NCBI GenBank assembly: GCA_964534225.1 | Contig: CAZHNW010000002.1 | Location: 20,581-84,580 of the forward strand | Reading direction: 5' to 3' | DNA length: 64,000 bases | Origin: an uncultured Leptospirales bacterium | GTDB lineage: Bacteria > Spirochaetota > UBA4802 > UBA5550 | In this document: positions 1,737-43,126 of the stretch, one piece after another | Layout: each line of letters opens with the position of its first letter | How positions within the stretch are numbered: position 1 is the first letter of the stretch | The notes under the pieces: generated by a model | What the model was told of the DNA's origin: nothing | Database searches by the model: none | Seen by the model: the letters and a program-made list of their open reading frames with translations, nothing else | Translations under genes and position numbers: made by a program

Positions 1737-4226
1737 TTATTCCGATATTACCGCAAAGTCTGACACACAGTCATCGCCTTCTATAGAAAGAAGCCTTACT
1801 CCTGTTGCAGTTCTTCCCTGAGTTGAGATATCCTTTGCCAGAACCCTGATTGTCATGCCTGATTTTGAAATAATAATTATTTCATCATCAGGGAAAACAG
1901 ACCATATGCCAACAGCTGCACCATGCTTATCGCTGGCCTTAACATAAGTCATACCTTTACCACCACGTCCCTTTGTGGAAAAATTCTGATAGACGACCCT
2001 TTTGCCAAATCCCTTTTCTGTCAGTACAAAGAGGGAAGAATTTTTCTTTACAACATCAATACCGATAATCTGGTCATCTTTAGTAAGACGCATCCCAATA
2101 ATACCAGCGGCGGTACGTCCCATGGTACGCATCTTATCAATATTGGTGCGTATAATAAGGCCGTTTCTCGATGCAATCACCACATCGTTATCCTTTTCAA
2201 CCACCCTGACATCTACCAGCTCATCTTCCTTTTTGAGATTAATGGAAATAATCCCTCCCTTACGGGAATTCGAAAAATCGCTGGCAGCGATCTTTTTCAT
2301 TATTCCGTTCCTGGTGACCATACAAAGGTTTATATCCTCACTGTAATCGTTTACAGAACAGATGGCCGTAATAAGTTCTCCCGATGAAAGATTAATAATT
2401 CCCTTGAGGCTTTTCCCTCTGCTTGATTTTGAAGCAACAGGAATCTCATATGCTTTGAGAGAAAAAATCTTGCCCTTGTTTGAAAAAAGCATCACCATGT
2501 CATGTGTTGAGCAGATTGTCATCATCCTGATAAAATCTTCACGCTTTGATGACATTCCAATTACGCCCTTACCGCCACGACGCTGTTTTTTGAAGGTATC
2601 GATAGGCATACGGCGTATAAACCCATCATTGCTAATGGATATTACCATATCCTCTTCAGCAATAAGATCCTCAACATTGAAATCGGTGGAAGTTTCACCT
2701 CCTTCCACAATTTCAGTTCGTCGTGGATCAGCATATTTTTCCTTAACAGCCAGGAGTTCATTCTTTACTATATTTAAAATTTTTGTCTCGCTTTTCAGAA
2801 TCGCCTTAAGCTCGGCAATAAGCTTTTCCAGCGCCTTTAATTCTTCAACGATCTTCTGCACTTCAAGGCTTGTCAGCCTCTGCAGACGCATATCAAGAAT
2901 TGCCTTTGCCTGGATTTCAGAGAGTTTGAAACGCTTAATCAGTTTCTTTCCCGCCTCATCGGCATTCTTTGATCCACGAATGATCTTGATAACCTCATCA
3001 ATATTATCAAGGGCTATCTTGAGTCCTTCAAGAATATGAGCCCTCTCCTCGGCCTTTCTCAGTTCATACTGTGTTCTGCGTGTCACAACCGTTTTACGAT
3101 GAAGAACGTAATGAGATAAAATACCTTTGAGATCGAGAATCTTTGGCACATTGTCAACGATGGAAAGAAATATTATTCCATAGGAACTCTGAAGAGCGGT
3201 ATGCTTGTAGAGTTGATTTAATATGACAGAGCTGTTAGCGTCTTTTTTAAGACCAATGAATACACGCAGTCCCTTTTTATCAGATTCATCGCGAATCTCG
3301 GCGATGCCTTCAATTACCTTTGCGTTGACAAGTTCCGCAATCCTGGCAATCATATTAGCCTTGTTGACCTGGTAGGGAATATCCTGGATAATAATAGCTT
3401 CACGACCACGTTTATATTCTTCAATAGTTGAATGAGCACGTATCTTGATACTGCCTCTGCCTGTTGTGTAGGCCTTGTAAATACCCTCACTGCCCATAAT
3501 ACTGGCACCGGTGGGAAAATCAGGACCCTTGATATGCTTCATCAACTGCTTGATCTTTATATCAGGATTTTCAATCAATGCGATTGTGCCATCAATGACT
3601 TCACCCAGGTTATGAGGAGGAATTTTAGTTGCCATACCAACGGCAATACCTTCAGAACCGTTTACGAGAAGATTAGGGAATGATGCAGGAAGTACAATTG
3701 GTTCCTTTCGTGTTTCATCGAAATTAGGGAGAAAATCAATTGTTTCTTTATCTATGTCCTTAAGCAGTTCTTCTGCAGCCTTATTTAAACGGGCTTCAGT
3801 ATAACGATAGGCAGCAGGAGGATCACCGTCAATGGAACCGAAATTACCCTGTCCATCAATGATGGGTAGCCTCATGGAAAATTCCTGAGACATCCTGACC
3901 ATTGTGTCATACACAGCTGAATCACCATGGGGGTGAAAGTTACCAATAACTTCCCCCACAATCTTTGCTGATTTAACATAGGGCCTGTCACTTCTCCAGG
4001 CCCTCTCGTTCATGGCGTGCAGAATCCGGCGATGGACTGGTTTTAATCCGTCACGAATATCAGGAAGGGCCCGGCCGATTATGACACTCATTGCATAATC
4101 GAGATAGGCGCCCCTCATCTGGTCTTCAATTTCAACATCAAGAATAGTCTCCTGTGGTTGAAAAAGTTCCTGCTGTGTATCTTTTTTGACCTTTGCTGGT
4201 TTTTTACCTGTTTTTTTCGTCGCCAC
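1737..4226 (-). CDS. gyrA: DNA gyrase subunit A
   Basis: 829 aa. Has AAYRYTEARL and active-site region NFHPHGDSAVYDTMV, and C-terminal beta-pinwheel repeats. Directly downstream of gyrB. Confidence 0.97.
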   Translation of the reverse strand: MATKKTGKKPAKVKKDTQQELFQPQETILDVEIEDQMRGAYLDYAMSVIIGRALPDIRDGLKPVHRRILHAMNERAWRSDRPYVKSAKIVGEVIGNFHPHGDSAVYDTMVRMSQEFSMRLPIIDGQGNFGSIDGDPPAAYRYTEARLNKAAEELLKDIDKETIDFLPNFDETRKEPIVLPASFPNLLVNGSEGIAVGMATKIPPHNLGEVIDGTIALIENPDIKIKQLMKHIKGPDFPTGASIMGSEGIYKAYTTGRGSIKIRAHSTIEEYKRGREAIIIQDIPYQVNKANMIARIAELVNAKVIEGIAEIRDESDKKGLRVFIGLKKDANSSVILNQLYKHTALQSSYGIIFLSIVDNVPKILDLKGILSHYVLHRKTVVTRRTQYELRKAEERAHILEGLKIALDNIDEVIKIIRGSKNADEAGKKLIKRFKLSEIQAKAILDMRLQRLTSLEVQKIVEELKALEKLIAELKAILKSETKILNIVKNELLAVKEKYADPRRTEIVEGGETSTDFNVEDLIAEEDMVISISNDGFIRRMPIDTFKKQRRGGKGVIGMSSKREDFIRMMTICSTHDMVMLFSNKGKIFSLKAYEIPVASKSSRGKSLKGIINLSSGELITAICSVNDYSEDINLCMVTRNGIMKKIAASDFSNSRKGGIISINLKKEDELVDVRVVEKDNDVVIASRNGLIIRTNIDKMRTMGRTAAGIIGMRLTKDDQIIGIDVVKKNSSLFVLTEKGFGKRVVYQNFSTKGRGGKGMTYVKASDKHGAAVGIWSVFPDDEIIIISKSGMTIRVLAKDISTQGRTATGVRLLSIEGDDCVSDFAVISE

Positions 4227-4244: not shown

Positions 4245-6188
<1,944 letters not shown>

Positions 6189-6403
6189 CTAATTCTTTTC
6201 TTTTAATTATAGTAAAGGGACTGACTGCACTTGAAATAATTGAATTATTTTCGTCTACAGCTATAGTCTTATTGTTGCTTTCTGTCTTTTTAAGGATATA
6301 CCGGTTTTCATCAGACATCTCCAGTGTTTCCCGGTTAAAAATTCCAATTAGCCGGGATAAAGAAACTATCCTGTTGTTACCAATGTGTATATGCATTTTC
6401 AAT

Positions 6404-6826
6404 TCAATGGTTATTCCACTGCAACCTTTTAATTTCCATTTTTATAGTATTAACAGAAGCCGCTGGTACCTTTTCGCGAATCTGTTGAAGAATGCTTTCT
6501 TTCATCATTGTCAGTTCATTTGCATAAACAGAATGATCAGTGGTAATAAAAAGAATATTTTTAAAAATTCTGTCAGGAATACTGTGGGAAGACAGTATTT
6601 CTCCCACAAAATTGTTCCATTCTGACCGTATGTTTTCAATAATAAACGAATCTTTAATATTGAATTCTGATACAATGTCAGGAATAAGAGACTCAATATT
6701 TGTAATTTTTTTTGACCGTTTGGTATTAAATCTGAATTTCATAGGCATACTTTGAATATAGACCTGATATCGTTTTTGGTATAATTTGAGCAAGCAAATT
6801 TTGAGAGAGTCTCTTGAAAATAACAA
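6404..6826 (-). CDS. DUF721-family small protein located between recF and gyrB
   Basis: Positional and sequence resemblance to the small DUF721/YaaB-type protein found after recF in many genomes. The listed start is a TTG; in-frame ATGs at 6748/6742 (MPMKFRF...) are alternative starts. No clear SD at any of them. Confidence 0.55.
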   Translation of the reverse strand: MLFSRDSLKICLLKLYQKRYQVYIQSMPMKFRFNTKRSKKITNIESLIPDIVSEFNIKDSFIIENIRSEWNNFVGEILSSHSIPDRIFKNILFITTDHSVYANELTMMKESILQQIREKVPAASVNTIKMEIKRLQWNNH

Positions 6827-6893
6827 TTTTATTATGTCGCTTCAACTCCGTCAATCATTTGTTTATTTGTTATAATTAATTCCATTTATATAT

Positions 6894-7612
6894 ATGCCCC
6901 TTTCAGCCGACAATTCTCAATATAACAACAAGCAGGAGTTTATTTTAAAAATGAAATCAGAAAAATTATTAATAATGACTACTCTTATAACTCTGTTAAT
7001 ACCGGTATCTGAAATCTTTGGTAATAGTATAAGAGAGGAAACCAATTATCTTGATAAATTTCATGCCCATAAAATTGTTCGAAAACTCAGCACCCAGAAT
7101 ATTAGAAAAATAGAATTTCTTGAAATAATTGCGAAAAACTTTGGTTATGTAGACAATTACTCTCTCAGAAAAGGCTACTGGAAAGCATACCTGATGATAA
7201 CCAGTGGTGATATTATAGATGCCATGAAAGGCATGAAAAAAACAAGAAAAATATCCAGAAAGCTTTAAAGAAAGCAGCACTGCTTTATAAAGGCGATACT
7301 GAGGAAATACTCAATGAATGTTCCATTCGTCTTTCTGTAATGAAACTTGAAACAGAAAATAATCGTAAAGATAAAGATATACTGGAACAAAACCAGCTGC
7401 GACTGCGTATTGCGTTTAAAGAACTTCACAATGCTGAAACAGCTTTAATAAACAAACAATACTGTAATTCAATAAATCTATTTCGAACAGCTAAAAACCA
7501 GGCAATAAAAGCCCTTGAAAATATTTCCCCAGAAAATGAAAAGAAGCAGGTTATATATAAATATAGAATTCATATAGTTGATAACAGGCAGGAAGTATAT
7601 AAAAAAAGCTGA
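6894..7612 (+). CDS. hypothetical exported/membrane-anchored protein, split into two ORFs by an apparent frameshift at an A7 tract
   Basis: ORF 6894-7268 (N-terminal hydrophobic segment MKSEKLLIMTTLITLLIPV) and ORF 7340-7612. The frame of the second ORF is open back to 7211 and reads KALKKAALLYKGDTEEIL... Frames switch at A7 run 7236-7242. AT-rich, on the opposite strand to the surrounding dnaA-gyrA genes. Confidence 0.35.
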
Positions 7613-7751
7613 ATCTATTTCTTTGAAAATTCCGCCAGGTCACTGATACTGAAACCACTCTTTTTTTATTGATGCTATAGAAAAAATCCTGATGGGGAGC
7701 AAGTCTATCTATAATTTTCCAGCTAAATAGCTGAGTAGTTACAATCTATTT

Positions 7752-8861
7752 TTATTTTTCTATAATGTGAGCCTCTTTTTCAAGGGAAAATGTTTTCACT
7801 GAAGGGAAAAGGTCAATATTAAACATTCGTATATCAACCATGGTAAATATTACCTGGTTTCCTCTGCTTAAGATTTTTACCATATTCGCCCTTCTCTCTT
7901 CATCAAGCTCAGAAAAAATATCATCAACAAGTATAATTGCCTTTGTTGACAGTTTCTTTTCCAGGTATGAAAATTCTGCAGCTTTAAGTGCAATGGCTGC
8001 AGTACGTCTTTGCCCCTGAGAAGCATAACTTGTAAAATGAATATTTTCACTCATCTGGAGCCTGATATCATCTCTCTGGGGACCAGCACCGGTATTGCCA
8101 CTCATAATGTCCTTCTGTCGCCTGGAAATAAGACTCGTGACAATATCATTATCTGAATCAACATTTATCGATTCTATATATTTTATATCAGGGCCGGAAT
8201 CATTCAGACCTATCTTTCTGTAACTTTCAGAAAAAAGCATTTGAAATATTTCAATAAAGGCCCTTCTCTTTTTAATAATATATGATGCCTTTTCTGCAAA
8301 AAGAGCATCAAATACATCAAGCTGCCGCGTATCACTGGTCTTTCTTTCTCTCAATGATTTCAACAGCCTGTTTCGTGACATCAGTATTTTTCTGAATTCA
8401 TTGAGATTTTCAAGATAAACAGGATCTGTTTTAGAAATAACACTGTCAATAAACCTGCGTCTTATTTCAGGGGCACCGTTTACAAGGTTAATATCAACAG
8501 GAGAAAAAACTACTGTCTGTAGTTTTCCGTAATAATCGCTTATGCGATTTATTTCTCTTCCATCTATTTTTACACGTTTTTTTAATCTTTCCTTTTCGAT
8601 ACTGCAACCGACTTCATAACGATGTACTACATCTGTATGTACCCGGGAAGAACAGTAATAATTATCCGTATGCCATCGCATCATATCTGAATCACTGACA
8701 TTGCGAAATGATTTGATATGTGAACATACGGCAATAGCTTCAAGAATATTTGTTTTCCCTGTTCCATTTTTACCGGTTATAAAATTAATCTCCGGTGAAA
8801 AATTAACACACAGCTCAGGATAGTTTCGAAAATTTTTGCAGCTCAGCTCAGTCAGATACAT
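7752..8861 (-). CDS. recF: DNA replication and repair protein RecF
   Basis: 369 aa. Walker A ITGKNGTGKTNILEAI, SMC-like signature region. Classic position after dnaN. Confidence 0.95.
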   Translation of the reverse strand: MYLTELSCKNFRNYPELCVNFSPEINFITGKNGTGKTNILEAIAVCSHIKSFRNVSDSDMMRWHTDNYYCSSRVHTDVVHRYEVGCSIEKERLKKRVKIDGREINRISDYYGKLQTVVFSPVDINLVNGAPEIRRRFIDSVISKTDPVYLENLNEFRKILMSRNRLLKSLRERKTSDTRQLDVFDALFAEKASYIIKKRRAFIEIFQMLFSESYRKIGLNDSGPDIKYIESINVDSDNDIVTSLISRRQKDIMSGNTGAGPQRDDIRLQMSENIHFTSYASQGQRRTAAIALKAAEFSYLEKKLSTKAIILVDDIFSELDEERRANMVKILSRGNQVIFTMVDIRMFNIDLFPSVKTFSLEKEAHIIEK

Positions 8862-8889: not shown

Positions 8890-10026
8890 TTAATCAGCTG
8901 ATGATTTTATCTGTATAGGCATGATAACAGATACATACTCTTTATCATCTTCAGGGACAATGGTAATGGGACTCATTTGACCGGTAATGCCACACTTGAT
9001 GGAATATGAATCAATTTCCCTGAGACATTCAATGAGAAACTGTGCATTCAATCCAAGAGTTACTTTTTCGTTAGAATTGGATTCGATATTTAATTCCTCT
9101 TCGGCCTCACCTAGTTCGGGGGTCGTTGCCTCAATATTCAACTTTGAATTATTGAAGGTAAGGATTATTTTGTTTGCAGGTTCACGGGTAAAAATCATTG
9201 CCCTCTTCACAGAATCGAGGAGCTTTTTTGTTTCAATAATGACTTCCTGGCTGTTTTCGAGAGGAATAACATGCTTGTAATTGGGAAACTGTCCATCAAC
9301 TATACGTGAAATAATTTCGGTGTTGCCTATTCTGAAAAAACACTGGTTGTTATCGTAGCTGAACCGGCAGAGACCTGAAGATTCCAGGAGACGGAAGATT
9401 TCATTGACTGTCTTCAGTGGAATTATAATCCCCTCCTGAAGTCCAATATCGGTTTCATTATCAAGATTTCTTGTAATTAAGGAAAGCCTTCGAGAGTCGG
9501 TAGCGACAGCTGAAATAAATCCTGGTTTTTCATTGATAAGATAGATACCGTTAAAGACAGGCTTTATAGTATCGTTAGATGCTGAGTACATGACTTTTTT
9601 AAGCATCTCCTTGAGAAGAGACTGTTCTATTTCTATAGCTGAATTTTCGCTGAATTCAGGAATCTCAGGATAATCTTCTGTACCTGTACCAATAAGCCGG
9701 TAATGGCCTTTAACTTCCTTTGATTTTGTTTTTATATCTATTGCCATCTGGTCATTGATATCAATAACCAGTTCATCGTTGGGAAGTTCTTTGAGTATGC
9801 TCGAGAATTTTTTTCCATTAACGGTAAATGAAATATTTGATTCAGCAACTGCATCAATTTTGGTTCTTACCGCCATTTCGTTATCTGTTGATAAAATTTC
9901 TATTTGATCTTTTGTAATATTAAAAAGACAGTTTGAAAGTATGGTATTAACATTTTTGGATGAAACAATTGAATCTGCTATTTGTATTGTTTTCAGCAGG
10001 TTTTCTTTGTCGACATTGATTTTCAT
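8890..10026 (-). CDS. dnaN: DNA polymerase III beta subunit (sliding clamp)
   Basis: 378 aa, three-domain beta-clamp length and profile. Immediately downstream of dnaA. Confidence 0.95.
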   Translation of the reverse strand: MKINVDKENLLKTIQIADSIVSSKNVNTILSNCLFNITKDQIEILSTDNEMAVRTKIDAVAESNISFTVNGKKFSSILKELPNDELVIDINDQMAIDIKTKSKEVKGHYRLIGTGTEDYPEIPEFSENSAIEIEQSLLKEMLKKVMYSASNDTIKPVFNGIYLINEKPGFISAVATDSRRLSLITRNLDNETDIGLQEGIIIPLKTVNEIFRLLESSGLCRFSYDNNQCFFRIGNTEIISRIVDGQFPNYKHVIPLENSQEVIIETKKLLDSVKRAMIFTREPANKIILTFNNSKLNIEATTPELGEAEEELNIESNSNEKVTLGLNAQFLIECLREIDSYSIKCGITGQMSPITIVPEDDKEYVSVIMPIQIKSSAD

Positions 10027-10288
10027 TGTAGTCCCTCTTCTATTATTATATTAATAATAATTTTATTATTTATAGTAGTAGTAGTAGTGTCGAAGAATTT
10101 TGTGAATAATTGCATTAACTCCTGAAAAATTCAAGACTTTTTGTTATTATTGTCCTGTTAATAACTGTGGTTCCCTTTGTATAAATTATTATTATAATCG
10201 TTGTATTTATAAATTAATTTGAAAACAGTATATTATTTATTATTTATAAACATGAATAACATACTGTTTTCAGTTTGTTAACAGGTAA

Positions 10289-11635
10289 TTAACTTTTTAA
10301 TTCCATAATAAGGTCTTCAAGCATTTCTTTAAATTCCGGGTTTTTTTTCATATTATCTTCGACTTTATTTACTGCGTTGACAACAGTTGAATGATCCCTG
10401 TCACCGAATTCTTTTCCGACATCAGTTGTGGTCATATCGGTAAGTTTTCTGGCCAGAAACATGGCGGTAAAACGGGGAAGGATTATTCTGTTTTGCCTGC
10501 TGTTTGATTTAAGGTCTTCAGGGGTTACCTGGTACTTTTCTGAGACCTTTTTCATTATATCGCTGAGGGTCACCTTCTGGTTGGCGTCGACGTCAAATAG
10601 TTCTTTGAGATGAACCTTGGCGAGTTCAGCAGTGATGGGATTATTATTGAAAGAGGCAACCATCTTTAAACGGTTTACAGCCGCTTCAAGTGCTCTGATA
10701 TTTGATTTTATCCTTCGTGCTATATAGGTATAGGCTTCATCGGTAATGTCGATATCAATCTTTTCGGCCTTATTGCGCAGGATTGCTTCACGAGTTTCGA
10801 GATTAGGAGGCTGGATATCGGTTATCATTCCCCATTCAAAACGTGTTCTGAGCCTGTCAGCAAGTGTCGCTATCTGTTTGGGCGGCCTGTCGCTTGATAT
10901 TATAATTTGTTTCTTGTTTTCGTGCAGGGCATTAAAAGTATGAAAAAATTCATTTTGCGTTTCTTCCTTGTTTTCGAGGAATTGAATATCATCTATCAAC
11001 AGAATATCAACATCCCTGTATTTTATTTTAAAACTTTCCTGTGTTCTGTTGCGTATTGATGTAATGAATTCATTTATGAACTGCTCGGTGGAAACAAAGA
11101 GAACCTTGAGATAGGGTTTTTCGTCAGTGATATAATGTCCTACAGCCTGAAGAAGATGGGTTTTACCGAGACCGGATGATCCGTAAATAAAAAGGGGATT
11201 TATCTCCCGTGCAGGAGACTGCGCCACGGAGTAGGCAGCGGCATGGGCGAATTGATTATTAGGGCCTATAACGAAATTATCGAAGGTATAACTGGGATTG
11301 AGTACCAGGTCAGGTTTTTCATTTGAATTAATTCTCGGGATAAAATCCGGTTCAGGGTTTGTCTTTATATCGGTTTGTTTCGTTTTATCGAAATCGATAC
11401 CTGTAACAAACTCACAGACATATTTACGTCCTGTTATTTCTTCAACGATTGACTCTATCTGTGTCGAATAATGTTCATGTATATGCCTGCGAGCCACATC
11501 ATCAGCAACCTTAACGGTAAGGCGGTTTTCGGTAAGGGAAACCGGTTGAGTATCCTTGAGCCACATATTAAAGGATTGTCTGTTAATTTCTCCTTCAAGG
11601 GTGGATAAAACCCTGTTCCATATTGTTTGTGTCAC
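10289..11635 (-). CDS. dnaA: chromosomal replication initiator protein DnaA
   Basis: 448 aa. AAA+ Walker A GSSGLGKTHLLQA, Walker B LLIDDIQFL, C-terminal DnaA-box binding helix region (KSNSRQNRIILPRFTAMFLARKLT). Confidence 0.97.
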   Translation of the reverse strand: MTQTIWNRVLSTLEGEINRQSFNMWLKDTQPVSLTENRLTVKVADDVARRHIHEHYSTQIESIVEEITGRKYVCEFVTGIDFDKTKQTDIKTNPEPDFIPRINSNEKPDLVLNPSYTFDNFVIGPNNQFAHAAAYSVAQSPAREINPLFIYGSSGLGKTHLLQAVGHYITDEKPYLKVLFVSTEQFINEFITSIRNRTQESFKIKYRDVDILLIDDIQFLENKEETQNEFFHTFNALHENKKQIIISSDRPPKQIATLADRLRTRFEWGMITDIQPPNLETREAILRNKAEKIDIDITDEAYTYIARRIKSNIRALEAAVNRLKMVASFNNNPITAELAKVHLKELFDVDANQKVTLSDIMKKVSEKYQVTPEDLKSNSRQNRIILPRFTAMFLARKLTDMTTTDVGKEFGDRDHSTVVNAVNKVEDNMKKNPEFKEMLEDLIMELKS

Positions 11636-12266
11636 TATTTACCTCGTATTTATCAACAATTGTTGATAACTTTGTGCATAAGTATACCTTTGTTGAGTAG
11701 TGTCTCATTATGAAACATACTATCAACATGGATTGTTGTAGTCAATGTAAGGGAAGAATAGGAAATAGCTACGTAACTATTTGTACTTTTGATAACGGAA
11801 AGAATTATTTTTGCAACCAATTAATTCTTAAAGAATGGGTGAAATTGAAAAAAATTCAATTTCTTTATTGTGTGGGGATAACCTGTTAACAGCAATCTAC
11901 TTATTGTTAATAAAAGAGATATTACTGTTAATTTTTTATGAATAAAAGGTTAATAGTTATTTATTATTTTTTATAAAAATATTTTTATGAAATAATTTGA
12001 ACTATAAAATATATTGTATTTTAATTAATTTGAAAATGATTTTATATTGTGTAAATAATTTTGATATGATTTATACTGATAAAATATAAATGTGTTTCTT
12101 TTTTGTTGACAATGTATTAATAATACTGTTTTCTCACATAATGTGACATAGTCTAAGTTTTAGGTAATCAAATTTTTTTAATTATAGACAGGGAAGTCTT
12201 TTTGTAAGTAAATTAATTGAATTCTTCCCTGTTAATATGTTGATAAGTTCATAAAAGGGGGCAGGA
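11636..12266. promoter_or_regulatory. replication origin (oriC): DnaA-box cluster plus AT-rich unwinding element, includes the dnaA promoter
   Basis: Perfect 21-bp palindrome TTATCAACAATTGTTGATAA at 11649-11669 (two inverted TTATCAACA boxes). Further boxes: CTATCAACA at 11720-11728, TGTGGGGATAAC at 11871-11882, and TGTTGATAAG at 12238-12247. The stretch 11930-12110 is more than 85% AT. Confidence 0.65.
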
Positions 12267-12905
12267 GTGAAAAAGTTTTCAATAGTTATTGTATTTTTTT
12301 TGGTATTGCTCTCTGGTCCGGTATATTCTCTCGGAAATGAGCTGGTGTGTAAAATCGGGGGAAGTTATGCTCATGAGTTGGGGGATGCCGGTCTTGATTT
12401 AAGTGTTGTTTATCTCCTTGATTTTGATCCCTATTTTGTTGCAGGTATTGAGGGAAGTTTTTTCTGGATTCCCTGGGAGAAAAAACTTGGTACCCGGGAG
12501 GAGGGAAGTAATCCTGTCGATGTCGATGTTGTTGCTTCTGCAAATACCTTTGCCATACCGGTAATGTTTAATGCCCAGGTGCGACTCCCCTTTCTTGTGA
12601 AAAAGATATACGTTGAACCCTATATGACCATTGGTATCGGTTATACACCGGTAATTCTTACCTATGATCAGCCAGCCTTTGAAGATGCCGAAACCACTGT
12701 TTCCTATGCAGAGGAGGATATTACCCGCTTCTTTCACGGTTTTTCGTGGCAGGTACTGGCGGGGGCATCCTTTAAACCATCGAAAGATTCTTCTATCCGT
12801 TTTGTTGGTGACATCGGTTACCGCGGCATCAACGCAAAAAAGGGTGCAGAGAAACTGGATATTTCAGGCCTTCTCTTCAGGGTAGGTGTGCTTTTTAAAC
12901 TGTAG
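12267..12905 (+). CDS. outer-membrane beta-barrel protein (OmpW/OmpA-like small barrel)
   Basis: GTG start with GGGGGCAGGAG SD. Signal peptide MKKFSIVIVFFLVLLSGPVYS, alternating amphipathic strands, C-terminal VGVLFKL ending in aromatic-x-L typical of beta-barrel OMPs. Confidence 0.55.
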   Translation: MKKFSIVIVFFLVLLSGPVYSLGNELVCKIGGSYAHELGDAGLDLSVVYLLDFDPYFVAGIEGSFFWIPWEKKLGTREEGSNPVDVDVVASANTFAIPVMFNAQVRLPFLVKKIYVEPYMTIGIGYTPVILTYDQPAFEDAETTVSYAEEDITRFFHGFSWQVLAGASFKPSKDSSIRFVGDIGYRGINAKKGAEKLDISGLLFRVGVLFKL

Positions 12906-42187: not shown

Positions 42188-42583
42188 GCCTGTTCACGCT
42201 GTCCTTTTGTAGTGAGATCATCTTATCCTTTCTTTCGGTGGAGACAAGTATAATTTCACATTCACGCGAATTTGAGGGTCTCCTGAAGCCGGATGCTCAA
42301 AATACGCGGTAAAGCGGCCTTTTTCAGTTGCCCTTCTTCCCTGTATTGTATACAGTCATAGTATTTATGAAAAGCCGAAAAGGGCAAATTTTTCACCGCC
42401 TTTCCGTTTATCTTTTGTTCGATTCAGACTTTAAAAAGCAGGCGGGGGGAAGTAAAGGCGCACCGGCCATGAGACCCGGCACGGGGCGCGGTTTTTGTCA
42501 GGGGGAAGTCTCACCTGTCGCGGACAGGCAACCGGTTCGATCCATGCAGATTAATACCAGGTCAAAAAAAGGGAGGAAGAGTC

Positions 42584-43126
42584 ATGGCAGAAAGGGAAAA
42601 AATTTTAAAATACCTCCATGTAAAAAAGGGTGACATAACCCGCGAGGAAGTTGATGCCATTGTTAATGCCGCCAACCCGTCACTTCTCGGCGGGGGCGGG
42701 GTCGACGGAGCCATACACCGTGCCGCGGGGCCGGGGCTTCTCGATGAGTGCCGAACACTGGGGGGATGCCGGCACGGGGAAGCCCGCATTACTGCAGGCT
42801 ATAACCTTCCCGCCCGGCATGTCATTCATACGCCGGGGCCTGTCTACCGGGGGGGGCGTGAAGGCGAGGCGGATGTTTTACGCAGTTCCTATTATAATTC
42901 ACTTCTCCTGGCAAAGGAGTATGATCTTACATCGATTTCCTTCCCCGCCATATCAGCGGGAGTGTATGGCTATCCCCTTGAGGAGGCGTGCCGTATCGCC
43001 GTTGATACGGCAGTAGAATTTATGGAGAGAGAAAATTATTCTATTGATGTATATTATGTCCTTTTTGATAATGGCAATTATAGAATCTATGAAAACTACC
43101 TGAAACAGTTAAGAGAGGGGCAATGA
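42584..43126 (+). CDS. macro-domain protein (ADP-ribose/O-acetyl-ADP-ribose processing, YmdB-like)
   Basis: 180 aa. VDAIVNAAN and [14 protein letters not shown] motifs. G8 tract 42849-42856 inside the CDS. Confidence 0.85.

Follow-up and report, generated by a model that had tools for sequence, protein, structure and literature searches.

The window analysed here is a stretch of 64,000 nucleotides (nt) from an uncultured Leptospirales bacterium of the Spirochaetota (contig CAZHNW010000002.1 of assembly GCA_964534225.1, positions 20,581 to 84,580). Between 1.7 and 11.6 kb it carries dnaA, dnaN, recF, dciA, gyrB and gyrA on the minus strand. An earlier reading of this DNA, made from the sequence only, had claimed that plus-strand coding sequence interrupts this co-directional block, and the gene calls (the listing of open reading frames (ORFs) together with Pfam matches) bear this out. 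The substantial ORFs of the dciA-recF interval all lie on the plus strand, at 6894-7268 (124 amino acids, aa) and 7340-7612 (90 aa). They are the two halves of one gene, referred to below as the target gene, which is broken at a run of seven A's (A7). Its features are as follows.

6951-7612, plus strand: whole gene, as defined by the fused translation, the intact 220-aa allele P0005 in the sister contig L003 and the orthologue alignments
6951-7268, plus strand: truncated reading frame of 105 aa, with the stop TAA at 7266-7268
7236-7242, plus strand: A7 homopolymer, the probable site of a 1-nt deletion (A8 in the intact allele)
7243-7612, plus strand: last 123 codons (residues 98-220, the C-terminal part), which no longer share the frame of the start codon and end with TGA at 7610-7612
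6934-6938, plus strand: ribosome-binding site AGGAG, 12 nt upstream of ATG 6951, also kept in L003
6866-6932, plus strand: upstream segment of 67 bp that the window and the sister contig L004 have and L003 lacks (at L003 836/837)

A three-frame translation found the frame of ORF 7340-7612 open back to ~7211 and both frames meeting at the A7 run, just where the sequence-only reading had placed the switch. When one A is added, an uninterrupted 220-aa ORF runs from ATG 6951, the intact A8 coding for Lys-Lys-Asn (AAA AAA AAC). That reading had proposed a homology search of the fused product as a check on its one-gene claim, and single-gene homologues were found: a word-indexed search returned three proteins, namely two of 225 aa (P0001 and P0002; ~60% identity, 95-98% coverage) and the window's own 124-aa fragment. 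The fused product aligns to the intact 225-aa homologues without a gap across the junction, and P0001, P0002, P0007 (45% identity) and the orthologue on contig L006 (47%) are all intact and collinear across it. The 90%-identity cluster of the fragment has four members: both fragments of the window, P0006 (a version of 105 aa encoded in a different assembly) and the intact 220-aa P0005. The last is the A8 allele of a near-identical strain, 97.7% identical to the fused window protein. Because of the gapless homologue alignment across the junction and this intact A8 allele, it is proven that the two listed ORFs are one gene, which the earlier reading had thought almost certain.

By the same comparison, the real start is ATG 6951 and not 6894, since the latter falls in the 67-bp segment missing from L003. 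The two 'hypothetical proteins' of the public record (124 aa and 90 aa) should accordingly be merged in annotation into one frameshifted gene starting at 6951.

Sister haplotypes and residence between dciA and recF

The strain comparison comprises three consensus assemblies: the window, L003 (a Logan contig) and L004 (ENA scaffold_2878). Over 9.5 kb, L003 shares 99.3% identity with the window; it has A8 where the window has A7, which is the sole gap in 8.7 kb. L004 is 99.97% identical to the window, with 3 single nucleotide polymorphisms (SNPs) over 11.3 kb, two of them common to L003; it carries A7 and the same split gene, and its contig end differs from that of the window. The first 213 bases of L004 are GC-rich and unrelated to the window, the 99.97% identity applying to the rest, and are probably a chimeric contig end.

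The A7 and A8 haplotypes also differ by 0.66% SNPs and by the 67-bp indel. The 67-bp segment carries, besides the spurious start at 6894, an extended -10-like sequence, TGTTATAAT (6868-6876). Since the first bases of the segment can be aligned with L006, a more distant relative, the difference is probably a deletion in L003. Judged by the consensus alone, TGTTATAAT would be the promoter of the target gene; if it is, both haplotypes may carry different, potentially inactivating lesions. The window allele shows no second lesion.

Beyond these strains, intact orthologues of 225-226 aa occupy the same slot in four more distant lineages (45-60% aa identity), and in every relative with readable context the orthologue is divergent from dciA. 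Scans of genome contigs and of metagenome contigs contributed one relative each. The four lineages are:

L001, 'uncultured Spirochaetota bacterium' metagenome-assembled genome (MAG), 60% aa identity: two extra minus-strand genes before recF
L014, Logan contig, ~60% aa identity: order dciA-gene-304-aa gene
L015, Joint Genome Institute (JGI) metagenome contig, 45% aa identity: order dciA-gene-recF
L006, 1.1-Mb metagenome contig, 47% aa identity: order gyrB-RemA-like-dciA-gene-recF-dnaN-dnaA

Because the gene holds the same slot in five lineages, the word 'inserted', which the sequence-only reading had applied to it, is misleading. Comparison of the recF-gyrB interval in related genomes, also proposed there, found intact orthologues. 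From gene order and sequence, the target gene is an old, vertically inherited resident of the dciA-recF slot in this Spirochaetota clade.

The GC content of the target gene is 0.30-0.32, that of dciA 0.31, of the RemA-like gene 0.32, and of recF and dnaN 0.36 each, whereas gyrA, gyrB and dnaA stand at 0.40-0.42. At third codon positions (GC3), too, the target gene equals dciA and the RemA-like gene. The 6-10 kb stretch as a whole is richer in AT than the window, whose mean GC is 0.456. The description of the region as markedly lower in GC than its flanks thus holds against gyrA, gyrB and dnaA and fails against dciA and the RemA-like gene.

The interval itself varies in content. In L001 (8692-10772), minus-strand genes of 370 aa (weak Ion_trans match) and 319 aa lie between the target orthologue and recF, and in L014 (1396-2310) an extra minus-strand gene of 304 aa does; the window, L015 and L006 have no extra genes there. 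On account of these differences in gene content, the dciA-recF interval is a small variable region.

The putatively exported protein and its remote relatives

The fused protein matched nothing in Pfam or NCBIfam. With a profile of 3 sequences, an exhaustive HMMER search returned 84 cluster representatives at E<=1e-3, of which 35 reached <=1e-10. The family is counted here as these 84 clusters at 50% identity, and its alignment and profile (A5) hold 77 sequences. Members are 206-322 aa long, except for a few that are shorter and seem truncated, and almost every one is matched over its full length. Conserved across the alignment are the motifs YLD.FHA, NFG, H/L-x-R-x-A-K and, in the C-terminal part, Y..D..D/N.

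The 77-sequence alignment contains canonical Sec signal peptides, often ending in ..AQ. Since the signal peptides of distant members end in this canonical ..A-Q, the N-terminal hydrophobic stretch of the target protein looks like a cleavable Sec signal peptide and not a membrane anchor, and the protein would be exported to the periplasm. The sequence-only reading had described a hydrophobic anchor followed by a helical body rich in K, E and N; the hydrophobic N-terminus and the helical body are supported by an AlphaFold model, and the anchor is not retained. The model, built on the 77-sequence alignment, is an all-alpha bundle with a low-confidence hydrophobic N-terminus (predicted local distance difference test score, pLDDT, 94; predicted template modelling score, pTM, 0.84). 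It replaced a first run on 3 sequences that was poor (pLDDT 60). Helices are predicted at residues 33-64, 69-84, 88-134, 139-167, 171-192, 195-204 and 206-212.

The frameshift after residue 97 cuts the central helix of 47 residues. What is left, the 105-aa product, comprises the signal peptide, helices 1 and 2, the first 10 residues of helix 3 and 8 out-of-frame residues before the TAA. According to the model, four of the six core helices are missing from it and it could not form the bundle, for which reason we regard the window allele as a null allele. The internal ATG at 7340 has no Shine-Dalgarno sequence, and a product started there would have no signal peptide.

Although the window protein itself has no database match, the wider family points towards the flagellar sheath of Leptospira, whose filament carries FlaAP and its paralogues as sheath proteins built of an alpha-helical bundle (10.1101/2022.03.03.482903; PMC13518957). 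Searched against the PDB, profile A5 matched three sequences, all of them Leptospira flagellar filament components: FlaAP 10lk (E 3.3e-8), FlaAP 10lm (2e-4) and LEPBI_I1029 (5e-4). The match to 10lk is collinear over the N-terminal helices and the C-terminal motifs 'HyR.AK..AI' and 'Y..d..D'. An hhalign comparison of A5 with a Leptospira FlaAP fragment gave a probability of 96.6% (E 5.8e-10). The same fragment scores 193 bits on NF047672 over 145 residues, and by sequence FlaAP is the LIC11274 family that this model describes. A word-indexed search with it returned truncated Leptospira ORFs only.

Below-threshold matches to two NCBIfam models recur within the family: 41 of the 77 members match NF047447 (OmpL37; cut-off 150 bits, with no inspected member above 28) and 13 of the 77 match NF047672 (LIC11274; cut-off 360 bits). 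The NF047447 matches cover the first ~100 of 228 model positions, with a best E of 9.4e-10, and one member has a precomputed weak match to PF28315. Judged from these profiles, the kinship to FlaAP would be superfamily-level homology and not family membership.

Three known proteins offer comparisons. Like FlaAP (FlaA2-associated protein; LEPBI_I0551; NF047672; PDB 10LK, 10LL and 10LM), considered together with its paralogues B0SMK8, B0SMT6 and LEPBI_I1029, the target is a spirochete protein in which a signal peptide at the N-terminus precedes an alpha-helical bundle, the bundle of the target being a model. It falls in a similar size class to the Leptospira OmpL37 family (NF047447, 'adhesin OmpL37 family surface protein'; PF28315); OmpL37, however, is annotated as a surface adhesin, and nothing in the target bears on adhesion. 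The third is FlaAP1 of Treponema denticola (TDE2349), a helical-repeat sheath protein of 234 aa (PDB 10PL; PMC13439194). This periplasmic flagellar sheath accessory protein resembles the target in its similar size, all-helical make-up and expected Sec-type export. In the PDB sequence search A5 did not match it even at E<=10; either the two are unrelated or the entry is missing from the copy searched.

The genomic settings of the family are mixed. Distant members do not lie near the origin; some stand beside fliL, flbD and fliMNOPQR, others beside cheD and response regulators or a methyl-accepting chemotaxis protein (MCP) gene, and further ones adjoin unrelated, non-motility genes. At least one member comes from a Hydrogenedentota MAG. 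A role in the periplasmic-flagellum sheath is thus a lead and not a finding. The family now has a high-confidence model and a first functional lead, if a remote one, in the helical sheath proteins of the FlaAP/OmpL37 type. If the lead is true, the superfamily extends well beyond Leptospira, and natural ON and OFF strains exist for testing what an accessory protein contributes.

As a side observation, both the NF047447 and the LIC11274 model match this family, and they do so over the same N-terminal helices. On this ground OmpL37 may be a paralogue of FlaAP, a kinship that would fit oddly with its surface-adhesin annotation; a literature search for a link between OmpL37 and FlaAP found no paper naming both.

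Nature of the A7 allele

Our preferred explanation, to which we give a probability of about 0.68, is that the locus holds a single resident gene for an exported helical protein, a remote relative of FlaAP and OmpL37, which is here a null allele through loss of one A (A8 to A7) and not a switch. Most likely, replication slippage removed one A from the A8 run (AAA AAA AAC). Translation would then shift after codon 97 and stop at 7266-7268, and the outcome would be inactivation of the gene at the strain level, as an early pseudogene or as a mutation revertible in principle. In the intact product of 220 aa, a Sec-type signal peptide would precede an all-alpha bundle of elongated shape. The reading frame is disrupted relative to intact orthologues, the usual mark of a recent pseudogene. 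In its single-base poly-A contraction, its intact sister allele and its intact orthologues, the case resembles the homopolymer-frameshift pseudogenes and strain-variable null alleles of AT-rich bacteria; nothing sets it apart from them and it is an ordinary one. The target protein adds a new, remote member to a known superfamily; its gene is non-essential and the lesion a very ordinary one.

Several observations weigh against parts of this explanation. The link to FlaAP and OmpL37 is transitive, with the broad family as intermediate: no direct match to FlaAP, OmpL37 or any PDB chain exists for the window protein or for its close clade. P0005, P0001 and P0002 do not match NF047672, the window protein does not match NF047447, and the close-clade profile A6 gives no signal against the PDB or FlaAP. 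The NCBIfam matches of the wider family lie far below the cut-offs of 150 and 360 bits. FlaAP has ~370 aa with long meandering loops, unlike the 220-aa target, and the likeness in fold is one of sequence profile and predicted helices. The Hydrogenedentota member and the non-motility neighbours argue against an exclusively flagellar role of the family. Relative to L003, the target gene has 5 nonsynonymous to 1 synonymous differences, as compared with 10:17 in seven flanking genes (Fisher p=0.07); the excess hints at relaxed constraint but is not significant. Finally, the window and L004 may be one sample, in which case the same consensus error could appear twice.

This last point bears on a sequencing or assembly error, in which the real genome would have A8 and an intact gene and A7 would be a consensus miscall. 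A single-base length change in a homopolymer is the classic site of such errors, a strain of 99.3% identity has A8, every orthologue is intact, and the window and L004, only 3 SNPs apart, might share reads. The sequence-only reading had held that an intact gene in relatives would make this a plain sequencing error; intact orthologues and an A8 allele do exist, yet A7 recurs in L004, an assembly that differs from the window in SNPs and in contig end. Each overlap with L003 and L004 holds 15-16 A/T runs of >=7, and their lengths differ among the three assemblies at the A7/A8 site only. The window as a whole has 92 such runs. About 60 of them lie inside other real ORFs, all in frame, and the 64 kb yielded no further split gene, which argues that the assembly is not prone to homopolymer errors. 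Because A7 is found in two non-identical assemblies and no other homopolymer differs in length, we infer that it is probably a genuine, biological 1-nt deletion, the likelier of the two accounts; an error is a possibility that we take seriously and consider rather unlikely. The label 'frameshift-prone' does not suit a gene with a single lesion among so many runs that stay in frame. A second candidate frameshift, at the A7 of 42564-42570 (ORFs 42328-42633 and 42584-43126), was rejected: the upstream 101-aa ORF is spurious, and the run lies just upstream of the ribosome-binding site of a macro-domain (YmdB-like) gene that is intact. The overlap of xseA with xseB is a normal one.

If the change is real, the run might be a contingency locus, a selected, reversible ON/OFF switch by slipped-strand phase variation of an exported and possibly sheath-associated protein. 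ON (A8) and OFF (A7) alleles do occur among near-identical strains, a predicted exported product is the usual class of phase-variable gene, an A7 or A8 run occurs in every orthologue within nucleotides 286-333 of the coding sequence, and compositional plasticity of the spirochete sheath has been proposed in print (PMC13518957). The run is, however, no more than the amino-acid sequence predicts: among synonymous recodings of the protein with its neighbours' codon usage, 71% contain a run of A8 or longer and 82% one of A7 or longer. In the orthologues, moreover, the runs fall at different codons, or there is none at the codon of the window's run. From these two results, the run is an incidental by-product of Lys-rich coding and not a tuned switch. 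A/T runs of 7-9 occur throughout this genome without frameshifts, and the haplotypes that carry the two alleles are 0.7% SNPs and a 67-bp indel apart; in a sample of three assemblies, the alleles look fixed by lineage and not rapidly switching. Phase variation as a designed switch, which the earlier reading had entertained, is on this evidence quite improbable. Still less probable is recoding, by which transcriptional slippage or a programmed -1 ribosomal frameshift would make the full-length protein from A7. The required shift is -1, equal to one added A in the mRNA, and is located on seven A's; poly-A runs are known slippage sites of RNA polymerase in AT-rich bacteria, although A7 is at or below the length for efficient slippage. 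The orthologues and the sister strain are all single-frame, so the shift is not conserved, and on inspection the zero frame (ATG AAA AAA ACA) has no in-phase X XXY YYZ slippery heptamer; nor did a stimulatory structure come to light, although no search was aimed at one. The least credible alternative, to which we assign next to no probability, is a decaying, horizontally acquired AT-rich gene in the origin block. It would account for the strand opposite to the block, the GC content below the window mean, the absence of a Pfam match, the different lesion (the 67-bp upstream deletion) in L003 and the 5:1 excess. Conserved synteny down to 45% identity, with every orthologue intact, and a GC and GC3 equal to those of the adjacent dciA, RemA-like gene and recF speak against it, and the ORF listings of the flanks revealed no repeats, tRNA or mobility genes. 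The decaying insertion suggested in the earlier reading is not supported.

A bolder variant of our preferred explanation, a resident gene inactivated by loss of one A, is speculative, and we think it unlikely. It holds that the target belongs to an unrecognised compact (~220 aa) branch of FlaAP/OmpL37, an optional sheath component of free-living Spirochaetota that is switched off by independent routes: the A8 to A7 frameshift in one haplotype and the 67-bp promoter-region deletion in the other. If true, the genomes would bear a trace of the 'compositional plasticity' proposed for the spirochete sheath from cryo-electron microscopy (cryo-EM). The head-to-head arrangement with the dciA-gyrBA promoter near the replication origin (oriC) could then couple expression to replication-gene transcription or to gene dosage.

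The surrounding replication genes

The neighbours of the target gene, as called with Pfam unless stated otherwise, are listed below.

1737-4226, minus strand: gyrA
4245-6161, minus strand: gyrB
6145-6402, minus strand: RemA-like gene (DUF370), 85 aa, weak Pfam match (E 0.0045)
6404-6748, minus strand: dciA / DUF721 (PF05258), divergent neighbour of the target gene, a pairing kept in all five lineages
6816-6865, minus strand: conserved intergenic block of 50 bp (three-species comparison)
7752-8861, minus strand: recF, convergent neighbour of the target gene
8890-10026, minus strand: dnaN
10289-11635, minus strand: dnaA

Situated between gyrB and dciA, the RemA-like gene shares 17 nt with the annotated start of gyrB; it is also kept in L001, L003, L004 and L006. 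Among the window, L001 (overall nt identity 77%) and L006, whose target orthologue has 47% aa identity, the block at 6816-6865 is nearly invariant. It contains a putative sigma-70-like promoter on the minus strand (TTGACG at 6854-6849, a spacer of 17 nt and TAAAAT at 6831-6826) that faces dciA, the RemA-like gene, gyrB and gyrA. On the other side of the target gene, a terminator scan found no convincing terminator in the spacer before recF. This spacer (7613-7751, from the stop of the gene to that of recF) is the most variable stretch of the locus, with 6 differences from L003 in 139 bp (4.3%), as against ~0.6% in the flanking genes. No paralogue of the target protein was found within the 64-kb window.

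The homopolymer frameshift reveals nothing unusual about the replication-origin block. Five DnaA-box-like 9-mers (<=1 mismatch) are clustered upstream of dnaA (11600-11881), adjoined by a very AT-rich stretch with a GC of 0.17-0.24 (11700-12300). The dnaN-dnaA spacer (10027-10288) is a second AT-rich spacer, with a GC of 0.22-0.25, and the cumulative GC skew reaches its minimum at ~8.7-9.2 kb. The DnaA-box-like cluster, the AT-rich stretches and the skew minimum likely mark the oriC region.

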